Under the pieces are notes generated by a model. The model was not told the origin of the DNA. It saw nothing but the letters and a program-made list of their open reading frames with translations, and ran no database searches. The position numbers and the translations under genes were made by a program. A DNA stretch of 64,000 bases, taken from assembly GCA_964601615.1 (NCBI GenBank), contig CAZRNZ010000002.1:207431-271430 (forward strand), read 5' to 3'. This document shows, one piece after another, positions 102-40,138 of this stretch (positions are counted from its first letter, which is position 1; every line of letters starts with the position of its first letter). The stretch comes from an uncultured Candidatus Saccharibacteria bacterium. Its GTDB lineage: Bacteria; Patescibacteriota; Minisyncoccia; Phycocordibacterales; UBA918.

Positions 102-557
102 ATGGTAAAGAATACGTCAAAAAGAGGTTTCACCCTGATCGAGCTCCTAGTAGTAATCGCTATTATTGGTATCTTGGCTTCAGTAGTACTTGCTTCACTT
201 AACTCCGCTCGTCAGAAGGGGGCTGATGCATCTATTAAGTCAAACCTAAACAACGCTCGTGCTCAAGCTGAGTTGTATTACGATGGTCGTACTCCTAATA
301 GTTACCATGTGAGTGCTAGTGAGAATGTTTGTTCAAGTACTTCAGGTATTGCTAATATGATTACCGGTGCACGAAATGCAAATGGGACAGCAGCTAATGT
401 TGTTTGTGGATCAGAGGCTGGATATTGGGCTGCTAAGGCGTTGCTAGTTTCAAATACTGCACATTGGTATTGTGTTGACTCAAGTGGTCAAGCAAAGACG
501 TATACTAGTACTGCATGGACTTCTGGTGCAGTAACAGCTTGTCCAGCTGGTTCTTAA
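102..557 (+). CDS. Type IV major pilin / pseudopilin with class III signal peptide
   Basis: N-terminus KRGF|TLIELLVVIAIIGILA is a prepilin cleavage/methylation motif (G-1, E+5). 151 aa with C-terminal Cys pair. Own strong terminator follows. Confidence 0.8.
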   Translation: MVKNTSKRGFTLIELLVVIAIIGILASVVLASLNSARQKGADASIKSNLNNARAQAELYYDGRTPNSYHVSASENVCSSTSGIANMITGARNANGTAANVVCGSEAGYWAAKALLVSNTAHWYCVDSSGQAKTYTSTAWTSGAVTACPAGS

Positions 558-578
558 AAATTAAAAAGTCGCACAAAA

Positions 579-605
579 TGCCCCGCAATGCGGGGTGTTT
601 TGTTG
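579..605 (+). terminator. Rho-independent terminator after major pilin
   Basis: CCCCGC-AAT-GCGGGG hairpin followed by a T-run. Confidence 0.7.
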
Positions 606-617
606 TATAATTAACCC

Positions 618-1445
618 ATGCCTGAATGGTACATAATTTCAGTTGTTGCATTGTTTGGATTGATTATCGGTAGTTTTCTCAATGTAGTTATTTATCGACT
701 ACATACAGGACGTTCGCTTAATGATCGGTCGCATTGCTTGTCTTGTGGTACTACTTTAAATTGGTATGAATTGTTTCCTGTAGTTTCTTACTTAACTCTA
801 CTTGGCCGTTGTCGTACTTGTGGTGCATTTATTCCGTATCGTTATGCTTTGGTGGAAATATTAACAGCTGTCACTTTTGTTATTTGTTACTTATTTACCT
901 CTGATATTGTAACTTTTGTTTTGGTAGCGACTCTAATGTCAGTTTTGATTGTGGGATTGGTTTATGATCTCTATCATATGATTATTCCCGATGAAGTTTC
1001 AGGGTGGGCGGCGGCTTTAGCTGTCGCCATAGTTGGTTGGCAAGCTTATCTGTCTAGTGACTGGTTATATGTTGTATTTAATGCACTTTCTGGAGCTGCC
1101 ATTATTTTCTTAGTTTTTTGGAGTTTGTGGTTTTTTTCTGGAGGTAGAGCATTTGGTTTTGGTGATGCAAAACTTTCTGTATCGCTTGGGATGTTAGTTG
1201 GTTTGTCAGGAGTTTTTTCTTTGATGGTATTTTCATTTTGGATAGGAGCAATATTTAGTATCCTACTAATCTTGTTACAAAAAATTATCCGCAAAAGTTC
1301 AGGAAAATTTGGTTGGGGTCATGTTAATATGAAAAGCGAAATACCGTTCGCTCCGTTTATGATTGTTGCGTTCGTAGTTGTTTACTTCTTTAGAGTAGAT
1401 GTAATTCAACTCATCAGTAGTTTTGTAGAAAAAACATGGCTATAG
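618..1445 (+). CDS. pilD: Prepilin peptidase (A24 family)
   Basis: N-terminal CxxC...CxxC zinc motif (CLSCG..CRTCG). Polytopic membrane protein with a GFGDAKL motif carrying the catalytic Asp. Confidence 0.85.
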   Translation: MPEWYIISVVALFGLIIGSFLNVVIYRLHTGRSLNDRSHCLSCGTTLNWYELFPVVSYLTLLGRCRTCGAFIPYRYALVEILTAVTFVICYLFTSDIVTFVLVATLMSVLIVGLVYDLYHMIIPDEVSGWAAALAVAIVGWQAYLSSDWLYVVFNALSGAAIIFLVFWSLWFFSGGRAFGFGDAKLSVSLGMLVGLSGVFSLMVFSFWIGAIFSILLILLQKIIRKSSGKFGWGHVNMKSEIPFAPFMIVAFVVVYFFRVDVIQLISSFVEKTWL

Positions 1446-2020
1446 TCAAAAAAACAGTAATAAATTTTAGACAGAAAGAAAGAAACCTACATAGTGGTTT
1501 TTCTATTTTGGAAGTACTTATTACCGCTGCCATTATTGGAGTAATAACCGGACTTATTACATTGCAATATGGTTCTTTTAATAATCTTATCTTGTTGAAG
1601 AATCAGGCATATCAAGTTGCGCTTGATTTGCGTGAGACACAGACCAGATCACTATCGGTATCTGGTGCAAATGCTGCTTTTAGAAAGCCTTATGGAATTC
1701 ATTTTGAAAGAGATAATCCTTATCAATACATTTTGTTTCTAGACGCTAATCCAGAAAATGGTCTATATGACTTAGGAGAGGAGATAGAGGTAAGGAAACT
1801 TGATTCACGTTTCAGATTGGGTCGTCTTTGTAGTGGTTCTACCGAAAGTTGTACCACAGTTAGTGCCATGTCTGTAGTTTTTCGTCGACCAAACTTTGAT
1901 GCAATTATGAATGCTGGTGCAATAGCTAATGCTGCAGTGGAAATCACTACAATTAACGGAGATGGAGAAGACGTTCGTGCTGTAAATATAAATGCTGCTG
2001 GTCAGATAACTATTGAGTAA
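1436..2020 (+). CDS. Minor pilin / pseudopilin (prepilin-type N-terminus)
   Basis: HSGF|SILEVLITAAIIG motif with E+5. Confidence 0.65.
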   Translation: MAIVKKTVINFRQKERNLHSGFSILEVLITAAIIGVITGLITLQYGSFNNLILLKNQAYQVALDLRETQTRSLSVSGANAAFRKPYGIHFERDNPYQYILFLDANPENGLYDLGEEIEVRKLDSRFRLGRLCSGSTESCTTVSAMSVVFRRPNFDAIMNAGAIANAAVEITTINGDGEDVRAVNINAAGQITIE

Positions 2021-2025
2021 TATTT

Positions 2026-2685
2026 ATGTTGTTTTTTAATAAGAAAAATCTTAGAGGAGGTGAGCAGAAAATTGCAAAGCAATTTTCTGCTCAAAAAAAT
2101 AATCATGGTTTTTCTCTTATTGAACTGTTGGTTTCAATGGCTTTATTTATTGTAGTGCTAACTATGGGTATCGGTGCATTGATGGTCTTGATTAGTTCCA
2201 ATTCAAAAGCTCAAAATATTCAATCGGCAGTAAGTAATATTCAATTTGCTATTGACAGTATGTCTCGTGAGATACGTACAGGAAATGGATATTTTTGTTC
2301 AAGTAGTACTGAAGCAACTGGTGATTACACTCAAGTACAGGATTGTAATAAGGGTACTTATTTATCTATTGTGGAAGGTGGTAAAAGTCTGACTTCAGGA
2401 GGAAGTGCTAATCCTAATAGACGTATAGCATATAGATACAACACTGCTTTAAATGCAATTGAACGAAAGATAGGTAGTGGTTCGTGGGTTAGACTAACTG
2501 ACTCAGCAGTTTCTATTAATACAATGCATTTCAATGTAACTAATTCTGCTGGTAAAGATAGTTCTTCCAATAATTTTCAACCAACTGCAACGATATTTAT
2601 TAATGGGGAAATTATTGGGATAGGGGATACTTCAACCGAATTTACTCTCCAAACCACAGTTACGCAAAGAACTCTAGATTTGTAA
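2026..2685 (+). CDS. Minor pilin / pseudopilin
   Basis: NHGF|SLIELLVSMALF prepilin motif. Confidence 0.65.
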   Translation: MLFFNKKNLRGGEQKIAKQFSAQKNNHGFSLIELLVSMALFIVVLTMGIGALMVLISSNSKAQNIQSAVSNIQFAIDSMSREIRTGNGYFCSSSTEATGDYTQVQDCNKGTYLSIVEGGKSLTSGGSANPNRRIAYRYNTALNAIERKIGSGSWVRLTDSAVSINTMHFNVTNSAGKDSSSNNFQPTATIFINGEIIGIGDTSTEFTLQTTVTQRTLDL

Positions 2686-2690
2686 TATTT

Positions 2691-3266
2691 ATGAAATACA
2701 TCAATAACAAAAAAGGTGGATATTCTTTGGTTGAAGTGCTTATTTCTATTACAGTTCTTTTGATTGCTCTGGTTGGTCCCTTAACTATTGCTTACACTGG
2801 TTTGAAAAGAGCTAATTTCTCCAAGGAACAAACATTTGCAGTTTTTCTAGCGCAAGAAGGAGTTGAATCTGTTGTGAGATTACGAGAAGACTCTGCCCTA
2901 AATGCTTCTTCTTACGGTAATTTGTCTGAGGTTTGGACTACAAACTTCAATGCTGTGAGTAATCGTTGTCAGATTGGAAGTAATAATTATTGCGGAGTGC
3001 GCTTAACTGATGATGGCAGTTTTTCTCAAAATAATATTTATCAGTGCAGCGGCTCTAATTGTTTAATGAGATATAATGATGGCGATAGGGTTCCATACAA
3101 ACAAGGTGTTTCTGGTACAGAAACACAATTCACTCGTCAATTACAAATTACTGTTTCTGGTAATCAGTTTGCCAGAGTAAAATCTATTGTTTCTTGGGGT
3201 CCTGCAACTTCAGATAAGATTGAGCTAGAAACTTATGTCTACAATACTTACTATGAGCCTAATTAA
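2691..3266 (+). CDS. Minor pilin / pseudopilin
   Basis: KGGY|SLVEVLISITVLL prepilin-like motif. Confidence 0.6.
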   Translation: MKYINNKKGGYSLVEVLISITVLLIALVGPLTIAYTGLKRANFSKEQTFAVFLAQEGVESVVRLREDSALNASSYGNLSEVWTTNFNAVSNRCQIGSNNYCGVRLTDDGSFSQNNIYQCSGSNCLMRYNDGDRVPYKQGVSGTETQFTRQLQITVSGNQFARVKSIVSWGPATSDKIELETYVYNTYYEPN

Positions 3267-3834
3267 AAAAACAAAAGAAAAAGGTTTTGCTTTACTAATT
3301 ACCCTTGTGGTAGTGAGTGTGGTTCTGGCAATAGGTTTGTCGTTATTGTTTGTTACTACTAAACAATATTTACTAGCTATTACAGCTACTGAGTCAGAAG
3401 AAGCTTTTCATGCTGCACAGATAGGGCTTGAATGTATGAGATATCATAGAGTGCAGCCTAATACTAGAGATGCTTTTCTTCGTGATAGCACAAATACTCC
3501 ACCCACTGTTTCTTGTGCTGGAGTTACATCAAACATTTTGGACAGTTCACCAATTTTAGGTACTGGAGGGATAGGTGGGGTTTGGATGTATCGTTATCGT
3601 TATAGGTTTGATTTAGGTTCTAGTTGTGTAGATACTAGTTTGTATATTGCTGATTACAGGGATTCTAGTCTGGATTCACCTTATAATATATCAAGTTATA
3701 GTGAGGGATTAAGCCAAATACAATGTATGGCTGGTACCATTTGTACTGTAGTTTTTTCTCGTGGTTATAACAGACCTTGTGGACAGTTGGATTCAATATT
3801 TACTATTCAGCGCGAAATAACTGTCGAATTCTAA
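3235..3834 (+). CDS. GspK/PilX-like pseudopilin (no E+5)
   Basis: EKGF|ALLITLVVV N-terminus lacks Glu+5, as in GspK/PilX-type minor pilins. Confidence 0.55.
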   Translation: MSTILTMSLIKKTKEKGFALLITLVVVSVVLAIGLSLLFVTTKQYLLAITATESEEAFHAAQIGLECMRYHRVQPNTRDAFLRDSTNTPPTVSCAGVTSNILDSSPILGTGGIGGVWMYRYRYRFDLGSSCVDTSLYIADYRDSSLDSPYNISSYSEGLSQIQCMAGTICTVVFSRGYNRPCGQLDSIFTIQREITVEF

Positions 3835-32956: not shown

Positions 32957-32987
32957 AAAAGGGCGCACCATAGGCGCGCCTTTTTAT
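32957..32987 (-). terminator. Terminator for valS (minus strand)
   Basis: GGCGC...GCGCC hairpin followed by a T-run on the minus strand. Confidence 0.55.
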
Positions 32988-35176
32988 TAATTCTTGATCG
33001 GCCACTTAGCTACCAAGAGAAATTCAGATTCTTTCATCTCTTCTGGAAGTCTTTGCCAAACTGCCTCGGTCACAAATGGCATAAATGGATGAAGGATTTT
33101 GAGTGAACCAGTCAAACATTCTAGAAGAACTTTTTGTCTAGCAAGTTTTGCTTCAGTATCTTCACCGTTTAGAATTGGCTTGGATTCCTCTAAAACTTTT
33201 GCTGCCAACTCATCCCAAACATAGTGATAGGCTTTTTCAGCTGCTAGATAAAGACTAAACTTCTCAATCTCATCGGCCACATCAGCAGATACTCGATTAA
33301 ATTCAGAAAGTATTTCTAAGTCACGTTCTGAAAGTTTTACTTCAGTATCAACATTAAAATCAGATGTGTTACTCAAAATGAAGCGACTGATATTCCAAAG
33401 TTTGTTAGCAAAGTTTTTGTAACCACGAATCTTGTCTTCTGAAAGTGGTACGTCATTACCTGGAGCTGCTCCAACTACTAAAGATAGGCGAGTGGCATCA
33501 GCTCCATATTTTTCAATCATGTCTAAAGGATTGATAATATTTCCTTTAGATTTAGACATTTTCTGTCCTTTGGCGTCACGCACCATTCCATGCAGGTAAA
33601 CATTCTTAAATGGCACTTCGCCAACCAAGAATGTGCTCATCAAAATCATACGAGCAACCCAGAAGAATAAAATATCGTAACCAGTCTCCAAAACTGATGT
33701 TGGATGATAAGTCTTCATGTCGGAAGTTTCTTCTGGCCAACCTAGTGTTGAGAAAGTCCAGAGTCCAGAAGAAAACCATGTATCAAGAGTGTCAGAATCT
33801 TGCTCCCAACCTTCACCTGGAGATTCTTTTTGCACCTTTACTTCGCCAGCTTTAAACCAGGCCGGAATACGATGCCCAAACCAAATCTGACGAGAAATAT
33901 TCCAGTCACGTAGGTTATCAATCCAGTGATAGTAAGTTTTATTAAATCGATCTGGTGCAATTTTTATTTCACCAGATTCAACTGTCTCACGCATTCTTTC
34001 CTTGAGAGACATAGTGCGTCCGTCTGGAAAAGCGACAGGTTTATTAACGTCAATAAACCACTGTGCTTTTATTTGCGGTTCAATCACTTCGCCAGTTCGT
34101 TCTGCAGTAGCAACGTTGTGAGTGTAGGCTTCTTCCTTTTCTAGAAGACCTTTTGATTGTAGTTTTTCAATTATTACGGCGCGCGCTTTCTTGATGTGCT
34201 GGCCAGCAAATTCTCCCGCAATCGGTAAAAGAATTCCTCTTTCATCAATTACTTGCTCTTTGTCTAGGTTGTGACGACCAGCAATTTCAAAGTCAGTTGT
34301 ATCGTGCCATGGAGTGATGGTCATTACGCCGGTACCAAATTCCATATCAATTGCTTCATCTTTGATAATGGTGGCAGTGATCGGTCCGTTAATCCACTCT
34401 AGTTCGATTTGTTGTCCATGTTGGTATTCTTTGTAGCGACTGTCTTCAGGGTGCATTACTACGTACTTGTCACCAAACTTTGTTTCTGGACGGGAAGTTC
34501 CAATTACAAAAGGACCATACTTTAAATAATAGAATTTTTCTGTTCTTTCTTCGTAAACAATTTCATCGTCAGAAATTGTGGTCTGACCTTTTGGGTCCCA
34601 GTTTACGATTCTTTCACCACGATAAATCAAACCAGCGTCATACATTCTGATGAATGCTTCCATCACAGCATCGTAACGTTTATCGTCTAGAGTATAAGCG
34701 TAACGACTCCAGTCCAAAGATGAACCCATGCTTTTAGTTTGACCGATAATTGTATCTTTACTATTTTCTGCAAATTCGGATACGCGACGTAAAAGTTCTT
34801 CACGACCAAGATCGTGTCTGGTCTTTTTTTCCTTTTTATAAATTTCACCCTCAACTTTTGATTGGGTAGCAATTGCAGCTGAGTCAGTACCAGGAACCCA
34901 AAGAGTTCTTTTTCCAAGAAGACGATTGTAGCGAACCAGAATATCTTCTACTGCCAACATGGCGGCATGGCCCATATGAAGAGTGCCAGTTACGTTTGGA
35001 GGTGGCAGGACAATTGAAAAGGTTTCTGCGTCAGCCGCAGTAAAACCTTTTTCTACAGAGACATCAGGATTAAATAATCCAGAATCTTCCCATTTTTTGT
35101 AAAGCAGTTCCTCGTTATCTTTGGGTGAATAAGGTTTCAGAAAGTCTTCATTTATAGCTGGTTTTTGCGTATCCAT
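32987..35176 (-). CDS. valS: Valyl-tRNA synthetase (short, no C-terminal coiled coil)
   Basis: HIGH motif (PPPNVTGTLHMGHA) and KMSKS motif. 729 aa. Confidence 0.9.
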   Translation of the reverse strand: MDTQKPAINEDFLKPYSPKDNEELLYKKWEDSGLFNPDVSVEKGFTAADAETFSIVLPPPNVTGTLHMGHAAMLAVEDILVRYNRLLGKRTLWVPGTDSAAIATQSKVEGEIYKKEKKTRHDLGREELLRRVSEFAENSKDTIIGQTKSMGSSLDWSRYAYTLDDKRYDAVMEAFIRMYDAGLIYRGERIVNWDPKGQTTISDDEIVYEERTEKFYYLKYGPFVIGTSRPETKFGDKYVVMHPEDSRYKEYQHGQQIELEWINGPITATIIKDEAIDMEFGTGVMTITPWHDTTDFEIAGRHNLDKEQVIDERGILLPIAGEFAGQHIKKARAVIIEKLQSKGLLEKEEAYTHNVATAERTGEVIEPQIKAQWFIDVNKPVAFPDGRTMSLKERMRETVESGEIKIAPDRFNKTYYHWIDNLRDWNISRQIWFGHRIPAWFKAGEVKVQKESPGEGWEQDSDTLDTWFSSGLWTFSTLGWPEETSDMKTYHPTSVLETGYDILFFWVARMILMSTFLVGEVPFKNVYLHGMVRDAKGQKMSKSKGNIINPLDMIEKYGADATRLSLVVGAAPGNDVPLSEDKIRGYKNFANKLWNISRFILSNTSDFNVDTEVKLSERDLEILSEFNRVSADVADEIEKFSLYLAAEKAYHYVWDELAAKVLEESKPILNGEDTEAKLARQKVLLECLTGSLKILHPFMPFVTEAVWQRLPEEMKESEFLLVAKWPIKN

Positions 35177-35232: not shown

Positions 35233-36402
35233 TTATTCCTGCGCAAGAGAGCGGTTACCGTTTGCTTTGAGTATTGAAAGGGAGTCGAGATTGGGATCGA
35301 GAGCCTGTGGTGCTCGCGCATGACCAGCTAGTGCAATCATAACGCTGTTGTCTGTCGATAATTTTGGATTTGGTAAATACAAATCTAAGTCTGGGTATTC
35401 TGTTTTGAAATATTCAAAAAAAGTCTCTCTGATGTAACTGTTGGCAGAAACTCCACCACCAATAATTAGTGACTTAATGTCGTGTGTATCGATAGCTTTT
35501 TTTGTTTTCTTCAGAAGTACTTCTGTAACAGCGTTTTCAAAATCACGTGATAAAGCTTGTTTGTCTGTTTCAGAAAGTTCTTTATTTTCAATTGCGTAAC
35601 GAACAGCTGTTTTTAAACCAGAAAAAGAAAAATCTAAATCTTGAGAATCAAGCATTGGTCTCGGTAGTTTTGCAAACTCAGGGAGGCTATAGGTGCGGGC
35701 TTCGCTCGCATTACTACTTATTTCTGGTCCGCCTGGATAAGGCAGTCCCATTAATCGGGCAACTTTATCAAAGGCTTCACCAACTGCATCATCGCGAGTT
35801 TGTCCAATTTTTTCGTATTCTTGCCAATCAGAAATTTTTATTAGCTCTGTGTGTCCACCAGAAATAAGTAAAGCTAGTGCAGGAAATTTTAGTTCTGCCA
35901 ATATAGTTCCGTCAAAAATAGAGGCCAGTACATGACCCTCCATATGGTTTACGGGTGTTACTGGAATATTCCACGTGATAGCTAAAGCTTTTGCAAAATT
36001 TACTCCTACCCACAAAGCTGGTTCAAGTCCAGGTCCGGCAGTAACGGCGATTAGGTCAATATCTGGTTTGTTATATTTTCTTAGAAATTCAATAAACGAG
36101 TTATATAAATCTACCTCTCGTTCCAGAAGATTTTGGAGGTCACTTAGGGCGGCAGCTTCGCTGCCGCCCATCTCCAAATCGCCACTTTCTTTGAGTGCTT
36201 TCTCTAGCATTGGTACCAAAGTCTTGGCATGTTCGCGTTTTGCAACAGCAGGAAAAACTCCACCAAATTCTCTGTGAATATCTATTTGTGAGAAAAGGGC
36301 ATTGCCCAAAACTTTGTATTCAGCGTTAGGGAAGTCTCCTGCAGCTTCTACAATAGAAATAGCTGTTTCATCACAAGATGTTTCGATAGATAAAATCTTC
36401 AT
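35233..36402 (-). CDS. tsaD: tRNA N6-adenosine threonylcarbamoyltransferase TsaD (Kae1/YgjD family)
   Basis: MKILSIETSCDETAISIV N-terminus and the metal-binding His pair typical of Kae1/TsaD. Confidence 0.9.
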   Translation of the reverse strand: MKILSIETSCDETAISIVEAAGDFPNAEYKVLGNALFSQIDIHREFGGVFPAVAKREHAKTLVPMLEKALKESGDLEMGGSEAAALSDLQNLLEREVDLYNSFIEFLRKYNKPDIDLIAVTAGPGLEPALWVGVNFAKALAITWNIPVTPVNHMEGHVLASIFDGTILAELKFPALALLISGGHTELIKISDWQEYEKIGQTRDDAVGEAFDKVARLMGLPYPGGPEISSNASEARTYSLPEFAKLPRPMLDSQDLDFSFSGLKTAVRYAIENKELSETDKQALSRDFENAVTEVLLKKTKKAIDTHDIKSLIIGGGVSANSYIRETFFEYFKTEYPDLDLYLPNPKLSTDNSVMIALAGHARAPQALDPNLDSLSILKANGNRSLAQE

Positions 36403-36433
36403 AAAGCATCAATATATTGTATAGTTATCTAAT

Positions 36434-37303
36434 ATGCAAAAGGTAGTAACTCATAGTGGTAGTTTTCACGCAGATGATGTGTTCGCAGTAGCAACATTAC
36501 AACTTCTTTATGGAGTAGAAAATATTGAAGTAATTCGTACTAGAGACGAAGAAATTATTAAAAACGGTGACATTGTTTTGGATGTTGGTGGTGAATATAG
36601 TCCAGAAAATAATCGTTTTGACCATCATCAAAACGGTGCTCCAGTGAGAGAAGGGGACGTTCCTTTTGCAGCCTTTGGTTTAATTTGGAAACATTTCGGC
36701 GTGCAGCTTTGTGAAGATAAGGAATTGGCTGAAATTATCGAACGTCAGTTAGTATTGGCAATTGATGCTAATGATAATGGTGTTTCAGTTTTTAGTCTTA
36801 ATGATTTGGGAATTTCTCCAACAACGGTTCAGGATTTAATTGGTTCATTTAAGCCTGTGTGGGGTAGTGAAGAAGATTTTGATTCAGGATTTATTTTGGC
36901 CTGTAATTTTGCTAGAGATGTTTTGAATCGTTTTATTGCGCAAGCACGTGGACAGATTCTTGAAAAAAATTATGTAGCAAAAATATATTCAGAATCAGCT
37001 GATAAAACTTTTTTAGTTTTTGATAAACCAGTTACTTCAACTCTTTTGATTGAATACCCGGAAGTGATGGCAATTACATATGCAACGGAGGAGGGGAAAT
37101 GGAATGTTGCTTTAGTAAGAAAGAATTTTGACTCTTTTGAGACAAAGGTAAGATTTCCTGAAATCTGGGCTGGACTCCGAGATGGTGAATTAGAAAAAGT
37201 GTCAGGAATTTCTGGTGCAGTTTTTTGCCATAAGGCCAGGTTTTTATTTGTCGCTTCTGATAGAGAAGGTGCTTTAGAGGCAATCAATAAGACTCTTTTA
37301 TAA
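36434..37303 (+). CDS. MYG1/UPF0160 family metal-dependent hydrolase
   Basis: VTHSGSFHADDVFA N-terminus is the MYG1 signature. Confidence 0.75.
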   Translation: MQKVVTHSGSFHADDVFAVATLQLLYGVENIEVIRTRDEEIIKNGDIVLDVGGEYSPENNRFDHHQNGAPVREGDVPFAAFGLIWKHFGVQLCEDKELAEIIERQLVLAIDANDNGVSVFSLNDLGISPTTVQDLIGSFKPVWGSEEDFDSGFILACNFARDVLNRFIAQARGQILEKNYVAKIYSESADKTFLVFDKPVTSTLLIEYPEVMAITYATEEGKWNVALVRKNFDSFETKVRFPEIWAGLRDGELEKVSGISGAVFCHKARFLFVASDREGALEAINKTLL

Positions 37304-37306
37304 AAG

Positions 37307-37379
37307 TGACCGATACAAGACTTGAACTTGTGGCCTCAGCAATGTCAATGCTGCGCTCTACCAGCTGAGCTAATCGGTC
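37307..37379 (-). tRNA. tRNA-Val (GAC)
   Basis: Acceptor GACCGAT/ATCGGTC, anticodon loop TTGACAT, T-loop TTCAAGT. Confidence 0.9.
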
Positions 37380-37453
37380 AGTCGGTAGATATTACCATAA
37401 AAGTCTGGTTCATAAAGTTATCTCTATACGTGATATTATTAAATAAATAATTT

Positions 37454-38377
37454 ATGATGGCTTTTGAATCTTTTGGTGGAACGAATAAAAATGAATCTTT
37501 GAGTGTTGAAGCTTTGGCAGAAAAAGAATTAGCAGAAATTCTGGAAAATCCAGAGAATAGTTTTCTAAATGAAATAGAAGCAAACAGTAATTTTATTGAT
37601 GATGCTAATTCTGCTGAAGAGGCTTTAGAGTTTGCTAAGAAAAAAATCCGGGAACGACTAGAGAAGAGTACTGTTTTTCACACTGTAAAAACAATCGAGG
37701 GAATTGAAATGAAAGAAGTTGATGTTTTTGCCCTTAAAAGGACAATGGATACAATTTTAGAAAACAAATTTGAGATAGGTCGAGGAGGAGATGCCTTTGT
37801 AGTTATTGATAAAAGTGAGGTGAGAGAATTGCCTCCAGAAGTTTGTTATAAATTTTCTTTAGCTGAAGCAACTCCGCGTGGCAGAAACTCTGTTGATGTA
37901 GAGGCAGAATTACAAGGTTCTTTTTATGATGCGATTCACGAATTTACCGAGTCAAAAATTGGTGTACCAATTCCATTCTATGTTTTGGAATCTGGTCACA
38001 ATAAAATGATTGCTATGGAGAAGCTTAAGGCCAAAAGTATTGATGATATATTACGGGGCGATGGTTATCTACCAAGTTGGTTAGATGTGGATATTTTCTG
38101 TGAAGAATTAATAAGTTCTCTAAAATACTTTCATGGTCGAGGACTATATCATCGGGATATGCATTTTGGAAATATCATGATATCTCAATCTCCTGAAGAA
38201 GACTTTCAGGGGAAGTGGGGTTATTTAATTGACTTTGGTTTATCTGGACATGAAGATGAGGAGCAATTTGCCTACGAGAAAGAACAAGCTGGCAATACCT
38301 TTACATATGCCGATGATTATGCTATAATAAATGAAGTAAGAAAAAGGCTCTCAGAGCTTAAGTACAGGGAGTTATGA
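37454..38377 (+). CDS. Atypical protein kinase-like protein (RIO/Bud32/Kdo-kinase-like minimal fold)
   Basis: G-loop-like IGRGGDAFVVIDK, HRD-like YHRDMHFGNIMI, DFG (LIDFGLSG). No activation-segment or APE region. Confidence 0.5.
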   Translation: MMAFESFGGTNKNESLSVEALAEKELAEILENPENSFLNEIEANSNFIDDANSAEEALEFAKKKIRERLEKSTVFHTVKTIEGIEMKEVDVFALKRTMDTILENKFEIGRGGDAFVVIDKSEVRELPPEVCYKFSLAEATPRGRNSVDVEAELQGSFYDAIHEFTESKIGVPIPFYVLESGHNKMIAMEKLKAKSIDDILRGDGYLPSWLDVDIFCEELISSLKYFHGRGLYHRDMHFGNIMISQSPEEDFQGKWGYLIDFGLSGHEDEEQFAYEKEQAGNTFTYADDYAIINEVRKRLSELKYREL

Positions 38378-38583
38378 CAATAATGCTCACAAAACAATTT
38401 CAGGAGAGATTGCGACAATCTATCGTCGACCAGCCTCTGACTGGAGGTGAGATTCGTCGTGCTGAAGGTATGGGGGAGCTTTATTTCTCTATGAAGCGTA
38501 ACCATTCTTCTGAATATTATTTTCAATATACTCTAGAAATTGATGGAACTGATTATCACTTCTTTGGTAAGAAAGTTAATTAG
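38374..38583 (+). CDS. Small protein translationally coupled to the kinase-like gene
   Basis: ATGA overlap with the upstream stop. 69 aa, followed by a terminator. Confidence 0.4.
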   Translation: MTIMLTKQFQERLRQSIVDQPLTGGEIRRAEGMGELYFSMKRNHSSEYYFQYTLEIDGTDYHFFGKKVN

Positions 38584-38595
38584 TTTATCTAAAAA

Positions 38596-38634
38596 CAACA
38601 ACAGCGCGCTATGTAATAAGCGCGCTGTTTTTAT
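38596..38634. terminator. Bidirectional terminator
   Basis: ACAGCGCGCT-ATGTAATA-AGCGCGCTGT hairpin. Confidence 0.65.
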
Positions 38635-38653: not shown

Positions 38654-39040
38654 TTAAGTATTAAGCCAAGTCAAAGCTTCACCTTTTTCTGCAAAGATTT
38701 TTATATTATCTCTGCCAGAAAGTGCGGCTACTACTGATCCGGCCATTGAGCCTTTTTCCGCCCCACCAAAAATAGCAGTTTTTTCTACATAGTGGATGTC
38801 ACCTTTAGCTAACTCAGTCATTAGTTCCAGTGCTTTTACATCATATTCTCCTTCAAATTGACTCATGTCAAAAAGTACACGAACTTTTTGACCGAAACCT
38901 TGATATTCAGCAATTATTTTTTCTCCAGCTTCTTTGATAGCAAGTTCTAATTCAGAGATTCTTTCTTCGGTTAAATTTCCAAATATAGAAATATTTATTT
39001 TGCCGTTTTCGTATTTTGTTGTAGCAAGAGGTGGATTCAT
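38654..39040 (-). CDS. STAS/SpoIIAA-like domain protein (tentative)
   Basis: 128 aa with an alpha/beta pattern weakly resembling the STAS fold; no firm motif. Confidence 0.35.
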   Translation of the reverse strand: MNPPLATTKYENGKINISIFGNLTEERISELELAIKEAGEKIIAEYQGFGQKVRVLFDMSQFEGEYDVKALELMTELAKGDIHYVEKTAIFGGAEKGSMAGSVVAALSGRDNIKIFAEKGEALTWLNT

Positions 39041-39583: not shown

Positions 39584-40138
39584 ATGAAAATGAGAAAAAT
39601 AAATATTTTAATTTTAACCTGTGCTTTAGCATTTACTTCTTTGGGTGGATTTGTTTCGCCAAAGTCAGTTGAAGCTTGTTCTTGTGTTGTGCCTGATTAT
39701 TCAGAGGAGGGAGTGCAGAAGCGCTTTAATGAAACGGCTTTAATTTTTGTCGGTACTGTAAAGGATGTATCTGTGAAGTCTGGTGATATTCTTTCTGCTG
39801 GAACAGGGAATATCGAGTTTGAAGTTTCAGCTATCTATAAGGGTGAAACTACAAAGAGAACTTTAGTTCAAGGTGCCCGCGATAGTGCTGCTTGTGGTTG
39901 GATTCCAGAAGTGGGTAGTGAGTATGTGGTTTATGCCTATGAAGAAGATGGGGTATATGGCACTACAAGTTGTAGTCCTAATCATGAGACTCCTCTATCT
40001 GAAAATGAAACCAAGGTTTTTGGTGAAGGAATTGATTTGACGGTGGATGAAACTGTATCTACAGAAGAAGTTGCTTTAAGTTTTTGGCAAAAAATCCAAG
40101 CTTTCTTTGCTGGTATTTTCTCTTCTTTTAATAAATAA
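39584..40138 (+). CDS. Secreted TIMP/NTR-like (OB-fold) protein with N-terminal Cys-Ser-Cys
   Basis: Signal peptide ending VEA|CSC. Mature N-terminus and Cys spacing resemble the TIMP N-domain. Confidence 0.45.
   Translation: MKMRKINILILTCALAFTSLGGFVSPKSVEACSCVVPDYSEEGVQKRFNETALIFVGTVKDVSVKSGDILSAGTGNIEFEVSAIYKGETTKRTLVQGARDSAACGWIPEVGSEYVVYAYEEDGVYGTTSCSPNHETPLSENETKVFGEGIDLTVDETVSTEEVALSFWQKIQAFFAGIFSSFNK

Follow-up and report, generated by a model that had tools for sequence, protein, structure and literature searches.

The modified nucleoside N6-threonylcarbamoyladenosine (t6A) is among the few tRNA modifications found in all life, and its accessory proteins are TsaB and TsaE in bacteria and KEOPS, with the kinase Bud32, in archaea and eukaryotes. 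The function of the ATP-consuming t6A accessories is still debated (PMC6009658), and the RIO kinases, which like Bud32 are minimal kinases, are believed to be ATPase switches on RNA-protein particles (PMC6009658 and references there). Here we describe a pair of adjacent genes, one for a 307-aa kinase-like protein and one for a 69-aa protein, that lies near the t6A gene tsaD in a stretch of DNA of 64,000 nt (hereafter the window) from an uncultured Candidatus Saccharibacteria bacterium (GTDB lineage Bacteria; Patescibacteriota; Minisyncoccia; Phycocordibacterales; UBA918; assembly GCA_964601615.1, contig CAZRNZ010000002.1, positions 207,431 to 271,430, forward strand). Judged by sequence comparison and predicted fold, the kinase is a separate, undescribed family within the kinase-like superfamily, restricted to the Candidate Phyla Radiation (CPR), with the architecture of the minimal kinases and membership in none of their families.

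The kinase carries a G-loop (EIGRGGDAFVV, residues 107-117), a VxK motif (VCYKF, K133), an αC glutamate (E150), an HRD...N catalytic loop (YHRDMHFGNIMI, residues 232-243), and a DFG motif (IDFGLS, residues 259-264). An earlier note on this DNA, made from the letters alone, had picked out this open reading frame (ORF) and these motifs, and all of them proved to be present. In an alignment of 68 homologues, the unchanging positions are G109, G111, D113, K133, E150, H233-R234-D235, N240, D260-F261-G262, Y274, and D288. The catalytic motifs are therefore selected and not there by chance. A homologue search of 5.8 billion proteins retrieved 113 of 300-330 aa at 38-62% identity, from which the 68 aligned sequences were taken, and wherever their organism was named it belonged to the CPR.

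The same note had remarked that the protein ends soon after DFG, with no activation segment or APE motif; only 45 residues do indeed follow G262, and the structure predicted by AlphaFold2 with the homologue alignment as input (predicted local distance difference test (pLDDT) 89.5, predicted template modeling score (pTM) 0.84) agrees. In the model, a helical extension (residues 1 to ~100, with four helices at 18-72) precedes a core (~105-307) with a normal N-lobe, αD, αE, and catalytic and DFG loops. Past DFG there is only a β-hairpin and a single closing helix (292-306), and no activation segment, APE motif, or helices αG-αI are found in the model. D288, at the start of this last helix, may correspond to the αF aspartate with which other kinases brace their catalytic loop. 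Two residues past the catalytic Asp the family has a His, where Ser/Thr kinases have a Lys. Together, the conserved residues and the model point to a drastically shortened enzyme of the protein-kinase fold that is catalytically competent and probably active.

Among curated family models, only the generic Pfam Pkinase (PF00069) reached its cut-off with the kinase (36.4 bits against a gathering score of 31.7). The match is confined to profile positions 66-153 of 263, and the activation segment, APE motif, and αF-αI of a complete PF00069 domain are missing. Pfam ABC1 (22.0 bits, cut-off 22.9), Kdo (13.9, cut-off 21.3), and APH (13.6, cut-off 23.2) fell short, as did UbiB (26.9, cut-off 487), and membership in the APH, ABC1-UbiB, or Kdo-WaaP families was rejected because every one of their models stayed below cut-off. 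The Bud32 models (TIGR03724, PRK14879) gave 32.4 bits for the window kinase against a cut-off of 125, and 23-35 bits for four other members of the family; archaeal Bud32 was the best NCBIfam match in three of the five members tested, far below cut-off. The family consensus reads IGxGGDAFVV in the G-loop and HRDMHxGNIM in the catalytic loop. With scores this low, and with the motifs QGAEA and HGDLTxSN and the C-terminal RGRKR tail of Bud32 all absent when the family was set against three aligned, solved Bud32 sequences, Bud32 membership was rejected as well. Automated labels on family members read "serine/threonine protein kinase," "Bud32," or "Kdo/WaaP family."

Profile-profile comparison by hhalign gave the family alignment a score of 95.3 against CK1delta (probability 98.0%), 86.2 against PknB (97.6%), 75.9 against three solved Bud32 sequences (96.9%), and 30.2 against human RIOK2 (14.6%, E 0.0018). 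Of the query sequences used here and below (CK1delta, PknB, E. coli TsaB, E. coli TsaE, PRPK, and RIOK2), PRPK and RIOK2 were checked against PDB chains, PRPK agreeing with 7sza residue for residue and RIOK2 giving a full-length match of 706 bits. RIO membership was rejected on the RIOK2 result and on the absence of the GKES-type G-loop, HGDFNEFN, and IDFPQ from the family alignment. The best PDB sequence-profile matches of the kinase were CK1, STK33, ULK, and PknB, and a Foldseek search with the model returned generic kinases, with PRPK at rank 44. For the protein that the earlier note called Bud32-like, these comparisons do not support membership in the Bud32 family: the Bud32 score lies below those of CK1 and PknB, and the catalytic loop reads HRDxHxGN, not the HGDLT/SxxN of the aligned Bud32 sequences. 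The layout of a minimal atypical kinase, which the note had also seen, is borne out by the truncated C-lobe; membership among the Bud32, RIO, or Kdo kinases is not supported, with every family model well short of its cut-off. When 1.84 billion cluster representatives (clusters at 50% identity) were searched exhaustively with a profile, this retrieved 46 clusters at E <= 1e-30, which we call the close family, and 564 at E <= 1e-10, the wider family; the latter has two length classes, ~300 aa with the N-terminal extension and ~230 aa without it. In the library searched, no papers were found that tie Bud32 or t6A enzymes to Patescibacteria.

Similar to Bud32/PRPK (TP53RK, KEOPS), the window kinase is a small kinase fold without an activation segment, has an intact ATP site and an IDFGLS metal loop, is encoded, in the window and in most close lineages, near a transferase of the Kae1/TsaD family, and has a small partner protein. 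In contrast to Bud32, its G-loop is GRGGDAF instead of QGAEA, its catalytic loop is HRDMHFGN instead of HGDLTTSN, the C-terminal RGRKR tail is missing, a 100-residue helical N-terminal extension is present, and the adjoining transferase is a bacterial-type TsaD, not Kae1. RIO1 and RIO2 share the truncated C-lobe and N-terminal helical additions, but there is no detectable sequence relationship, and the G-, catalytic, and metal loops are different. The Hanks-type kinases (CK1, PknB) provide the best profile matches, have HRD...N and DFG in common with the family, and account for the Pkinase score above gathering; the family nevertheless lacks their activation segment, APE motif, and αG-αI, and has His for the catalytic-loop Lys. 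HopBF1, a secreted effector mimicking a client of HSP90 and the namesake of a type of minimal protein kinase, has no gene context in common with the family, and its structural match is weaker than that of RIO.

The 69-aa ORF overlapping the kinase stop had been put forward as a possible partner, and an ORF of 57-92 aa does directly follow the kinase in every close-family locus with downstream sequence, its start mostly overlapping the kinase stop or lying within 50 bp of it. Six aligned small ORFs have P21, R28, G34, and Y48 invariant. An iterative search extends the small-ORF family to ~10 more distant kinase loci, and ORFs of similar size and layout stand after nearly all other relatives, with homology at the detection limit. 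No Pfam match was obtained for 28 members, and a single-sequence AlphaFold2 model of the 69-aa protein, of low confidence (pLDDT 57.9), consists of an N-terminal helix and three β-strands. By this pattern of conservation, the small ORF is a real, conserved partner of the kinase and a new small protein family. The two genes form their own bicistronic unit, with a divergent tRNA-Val gene on one side and a terminator on the other, and are not in an operon with tsaD (Table 1). MYG1 and an opposite-strand tRNA gene separate the kinase from tsaD, so the kinase shares a transcript with neither tsaD nor MYG1. One copy of the kinase was found in the window.

Gene neighbourhoods were compared in the readable sequence, i.e., the window (locus L001) and flanks of +/-10 kb around the relatives' loci; for the close family, 17 lineages had enough upstream sequence to be counted. 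In the window, tsaD does lie 1 kb from the kinase as the earlier note said, on the other strand and with MYG1 and tRNA-Val(GAC), which the note had overlooked, between them. The arrangement is kept among relatives: tsaD is the divergent upstream neighbour of the kinase, within 3 kb, in 14 of the 17 close lineages, tsaC is near the kinase in four, and tsaE stands by some distant relatives. tsaC (TIGR00057, 133 bits, above cut-off) lies within 2 kb of the kinase in L002, L016, L017, and L040, which fall in four subclades of a neighbor-joining kinase tree and show three different tsaC positions. In L016 and L017, tsaC is the next gene after the small ORF and has the same orientation (gaps of ~27 and ~80 bp), in L002 one gene separates the small ORF from tsaC, and in L040 tsaC sits between the genes for valyl-tRNA synthetase (ValRS) and TsaD. 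The t6A genes seen in the close-family flanks apart from tsaD amount to tsaC in these four loci.

Of all neighbours in the close family, tRNA-Val(GAC) is the most constant; it is divergent, and 42-350 bp separate it from the start of the kinase. This upstream tRNA gene was identified in 17 loci (the window, L002, L005, L008, L010, L014-L018, L022, L023, L025-L027, L031, and L040), among them L010, which keeps it despite having no tsaD, and L031, a more distant relative. In the close family, ValRS and the kinase are two genes apart. Nine close loci have MYG1 in the interval from tsaD to the kinase, a DHH/DHHA1 gene adds to or replaces MYG1 in 4, and neither is present in 7. Since MYG1 is also of the DHH superfamily, a DHH-type enzyme is a frequent neighbour of the kinase. 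The DHH/DHHA1 (NrnA-like) gene was seen just upstream of the kinase in L005 (8470-9327, minus strand), L017 (8804-9790, minus strand), L025, and L027. MYG1 was considered as an operon partner of the kinase in the window and ruled out by the intervening opposite-strand tRNA gene and by its absence from 7 close-family loci. Downstream of the kinase-small pair, an ABC exporter (MsbA-like) is found in 13 close loci and GlmS in 10; neither is in the window. We would also like to note a 196-aa protein in L014 (7272-7862, minus strand) that weakly resembles the kinase domain of AceK (24 bits, below cut-off) and has G-loop-like and DIG motifs; its ORF is in an operon with tsaD, 10 bp downstream of it and in the same orientation, in that locus only.

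A wider scan, with one genome per species, covered 80 loci, nearly all of them in metagenome-assembled genomes (MAGs) of CPR type. The distant relatives (66 kinases, 24-37% identity to the window protein) keep every catalytic residue. Some of the MAGs concerned (those of L032, L051, L053, L063, L064, L075, L083, and L091) are labelled "uncultured Gammaproteobacteria," and also "Flavobacteriaceae" or "Planctomycetaceae"; their gene content and order are typical of the CPR, and the labels are apparently wrong. The distant kinases occur in blocks that recur as PilM-[tRNA-Arg, tRNA-Val(TAC)]-kinase-small-RluA-L19; CCA enzyme-YraN-Zn ribbon-tRNA-Gly(TCC)-kinase-HU-RNase Y; ValRS directly followed by the kinase; and DksA-LspA-kinase-small-TsaE-[tRNA-Val, tRNA-Leu]-L19-Cmk-SMC. 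In L037 (6803-10597), L053 (3-1594), and L068 (6589-10609), a kinase of 222-223 aa comes right after ValRS on the same strand, a few bases apart or in slight overlap. A tRNA gene lies within 300 bp upstream of 29 of 83 kinases, compared with 64 of the 813 remaining ORFs of these loci, and the types found across the wider family are Val-GAC, Val-TAC, Arg-TCT, Gly-TCC, and Asn-GTT.

Of the 66 distant loci, 6 have tsaE at most 1.5 kb from the kinase, and 9 have it within 10 kb. These are genuine tsaE genes, with 60-85 bits to E. coli YjeE and the motifs GDLGAGKT, SPTF, HxDxYR, and EW, and in L091 an operon tsaE-kinase-small is spaced by 3 bp and then by a 4-bp overlap. When two CPR tsaE genes on long contigs were looked up in reverse, the same kinase adjoined one (L178) and not the other; no kinase of this family stood beside tsaE in 80 metagenome tsaE loci retrieved from mixed bacteria by a TsaE profile search. 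If the pair does act in t6A synthesis, TsaE (YjeE) would resemble it as a nucleotide-driven accessory acting on TsaD, with tsaE adjoining distant kinase members, although a P-loop protein and a kinase fold are unrelated. TsaE and the kinase co-occur in several CPR loci, and a simple replacement of one by the other is therefore not general.

The 64-kb window yielded no TsaB, TsaE, or TsaC, in line with what had been said of the first two, and no tsaB or tsaE was found in the close-family flanks; of each genome, the sequence covered is only a few per cent. As a probe, E. coli TsaB works, since it found TsaB beside TsaE in ~30 unrelated metagenome loci. Four metagenome loci of 35-40% G+C (L107, L126, L129, and L138) have a compact tsaE-tsaC-tsaB arrangement in which the TsaB-like ORF is only ~110-150 aa long; these short ORFs may be a shortened TsaB of small-genome bacteria.

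The window TsaD reached only 157 bits on arch_KAE1, against a cut-off of 375, and is of the bacterial type, not Kae1. The TsaD proteins of the clade and of the outgroup L031 have an insertion of ~40 aa right after helix α1 (~75-115) and a shorter one in the first hairpin (~22-28); both are absent from five other bacterial TsaD proteins in the alignment. Helices α1 and α2 are the TsaB-binding face of bacterial TsaD and the Pcc1-binding face of Kae1, and TsaE and Bud32 both touch the C-domain insertion of TsaD or Kae1 (PMC6009658). Because the insertion seen here adjoins the TsaB-binding helices, it is conceivable that TsaD in this clade has an altered partner.

Over all 87 loci, ~21 t6A genes stand at most 1.5 kb from the module, where ~1.3 would be expected if a genome of ~800 kb has three or four t6A genes. 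A t6A linkage had been predicted beforehand from the window, and the finding of tsaE and tsaC beside the kinase elsewhere is therefore a passed test and not a pattern noticed after the fact. Several results weigh on the other side. In the window itself, kinase and tsaD are on opposite strands with MYG1 and the tRNA gene between them and have no common operon, and in L010 and the sister pair L019/L020 tsaD is not within 10 kb, yet the kinase-small pair is kept. Loci with the same arrangement are related, so independent linkage events are few: approximately, one for tsaD next to the close family, one for tsaE next to one distant group, and two to four for tsaC. CPR genomes are dense in translation genes, and some such neighbours are thus to be expected by chance. 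Two large distant groups (PilM...RluA-L19 and Zn-ribbon...HU-RNase Y) occupy blocks that contain no t6A gene, and the nearest outgroups with a homologous small ORF adjoin IF2/RbfA, ArgRS, TrpRS, Fpg, or PolA. There is a competing "valine" thread of similar strength, with ValRS or tRNA-Val near the kinase in four of the five block types. In the profile-profile comparison, Bud32 comes no nearer to the family than CK1 or PknB does, and the family's HRDxHxGN loop joins a eukaryotic-type HRD to a His-x-Gly-Asn that we take to be that of ABC1 and APH enzymes. Finally, a profile of nine CPR TsaE sequences has more than 8000 matches; tsaE is thus widespread in the CPR, and no vacancy for the kinase is evident. 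Among the 120 of these matches that were listed, none was on a contig with the close kinase family, a result without weight on either side.

Weighing both sides, we regard the t6A linkage overall as suggestive, and a functional link to TsaD as strengthened but unproven. The t6A linkage, the valine thread, and the excess of upstream tRNA genes together make a tRNA-related role for the pair likely, with t6A as the leading specific candidate. Our tentative proposal, which we consider possible without placing great confidence in it, is that the kinase-small pair is an ATP-driven accessory of tRNA t6A synthesis, analogous and not orthologous to Bud32 with the small KEOPS proteins that go with it. 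A kinase without the substrate-docking half, like RIO and Bud32, would join with the small protein, its fixed subunit, and act as a switch that binds and hydrolyses ATP on a partner complex. The process served would be the threonylcarbamoylation of tRNA A37 by TsaC and TsaD, where the pair would supplement TsaB/TsaE or, in this clade, replace part of them; the parallel would be with the RIO and Bud32 ATPases, which gate steps of ribosome maturation and t6A synthesis. A stronger version, unlikely as it stands, is a hybrid t6A machine in which an insertion-bearing bacterial TsaD, the kinase-fold ATPase, and the small partner partly or wholly replace TsaB/TsaE. Such a machine would be KEOPS-like by convergence, with the kinase and small protein taking the parts of Bud32 and of a small KEOPS subunit.

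Other readings of the pair draw on the same results. That it is an ordinary regulatory Ser/Thr (or Tyr) kinase, for which the small protein would be a regulator or a dedicated substrate, and that the t6A, ValRS, and tRNA neighbours are inherited gene order in a genome full of translation genes, appears somewhat unlikely, even though this would suit the Pkinase score as the sole one above cut-off, the eukaryotic-type HRD motif, the PDB profile matches listed above, and the many relatives without a t6A neighbour. Two invariant tyrosines would also suit it, namely Tyr274 of the kinase, 12 residues past DFG, where CK1 has its activation-loop PYRE, and Tyr48 of the small protein. A regulatory kinase would nevertheless be one without an activation segment, APE motif, αG-αI substrate platform, or the usual catalytic-loop Lys, and without a sensor or receiver domain, and its conserved place among core translation genes across the superphylum would be unusual for signalling. 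Another reading is a RIO-like ATPase acting in the maturation of ribosomes or other RNA together with the neighbouring DHH-family phosphoesterase (MYG1 or NrnA-like). One or other of these phosphoesterases adjoins the kinase in most close lineages, and IF2-RbfA-DHH, RNase Y, YqgF, L19-TrmD, RluA, and the CCA-adding enzyme are among the distant neighbours. We find this idea quite doubtful given the RIOK2 comparison and the missing RIO motifs described above, the close loci that lack MYG1, and the opposite-strand tRNA gene that parts MYG1 from the kinase.

The recurring kinase-small-ABC-GlmS layout of close-family loci and the weak Pfam matches to ABC1, Kdo, and APH could mean that the enzyme phosphorylates a small molecule (a sugar, lipid, or antibiotic, in the manner of APH, ABC1-UbiB, or Kdo kinases) for the cell envelope, in concert with the ABC exporter and GlmS, and the HxDxHxGN loop is typical of the APH and ABC1 families. 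This has little chance of being right, as all of these models are below their cut-offs and neither the window nor any distant relative has the ABC-GlmS pair. The two-gene layout of a kinase and a small ORF beside a tRNA gene might also stem from the insertion of a toxin-antitoxin module, with the kinase as toxin and the small protein as antitoxin, or of a kinase for anti-phage defence, and PADLOC does give weak matches to the PD-T4-6, MkoA, mad6, and PglW kinases. These matches are in the generic catalytic core only, at most 41 bits, the gene order is conserved down to 38% identity over many lineages, and integrase, repeat, or composition signals and a second kinase copy were not found in the window. 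We therefore rejected a defence or toxin-antitoxin function as extremely improbable. The t6A accessory proposal is the one we carry forward, with the hesitation expressed above.

The layout of the locus is given in Table 1. ValRS belongs to a block HSP20-PrsW-ValRS-TsaD that is kept across related loci.

Table 1. Features of the window around the kinase and its small partner
Feature	Positions	Strand	Evidence and remarks
ValRS (valyl-tRNA synthetase)	32987-35176	-	Pfam families; downstream of tsaD
TsaD, bacterial-type t6A threonylcarbamoyl transferase	35233-36402	-	TIGR03723, 353 bits (cut-off 296)
MYG1/UPF0160 (DHH-superfamily phosphoesterase)	36434-37303	+	PF03690, 222 bits
tRNA-Val(GAC)	37306-37379	-	ARAGORN; divergent from the kinase, 75 bp from its start
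Kinase-like ORF, 307 aa	37454-38377	+	ORF with kinase motifs
Small ORF, 69 aa	38374-38583	+	ATG at 38374-38376 overlaps the kinase stop TGA at 38375-38377 (ATGA)
Bidirectional intrinsic-terminator-like hairpin	38600-38629	both	Stem of 11 bp, 7 of them GC; T tracts on each strand
SpoIIAA-like (STAS) gene	38654-39040	-	Convergent on the kinase unit; common terminator hairpin

Elsewhere in the window, whose G+C is 34-41%, a Cys-rich 184-aa protein with a signal peptide and no family match is encoded at 39584-40138 (plus strand). At 102-3834 (plus strand), six ORFs resemble a pilus/pseudopilin cluster: 4 or 5 of them have type-IV-pilin-like N-termini (GFTLIELLVV, GFSLIELLVS, GYSLVEVLIS), and one resembles a prepilin peptidase. 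The MAGs closest to the window are labelled Paceibacteria, Parcubacteria, Kaiserbacteria, and Adlerbacteria, which marks its source as a member of the CPR/Patescibacteria.

If the proposed role is true, the large and poorly explored CPR would have a third t6A arrangement, in which an accessory of the kinase fold goes with TsaD, TsaC, and TsaE, and it would offer a simple system of four or five proteins for asking what makes a kinase-like ATPase necessary. Should the t6A link fail, the pair still ranks among the most conserved unannotated gene pairs in CPR genomes, and the kinase family lowers the smallest size at which a kinase core seems to be active.

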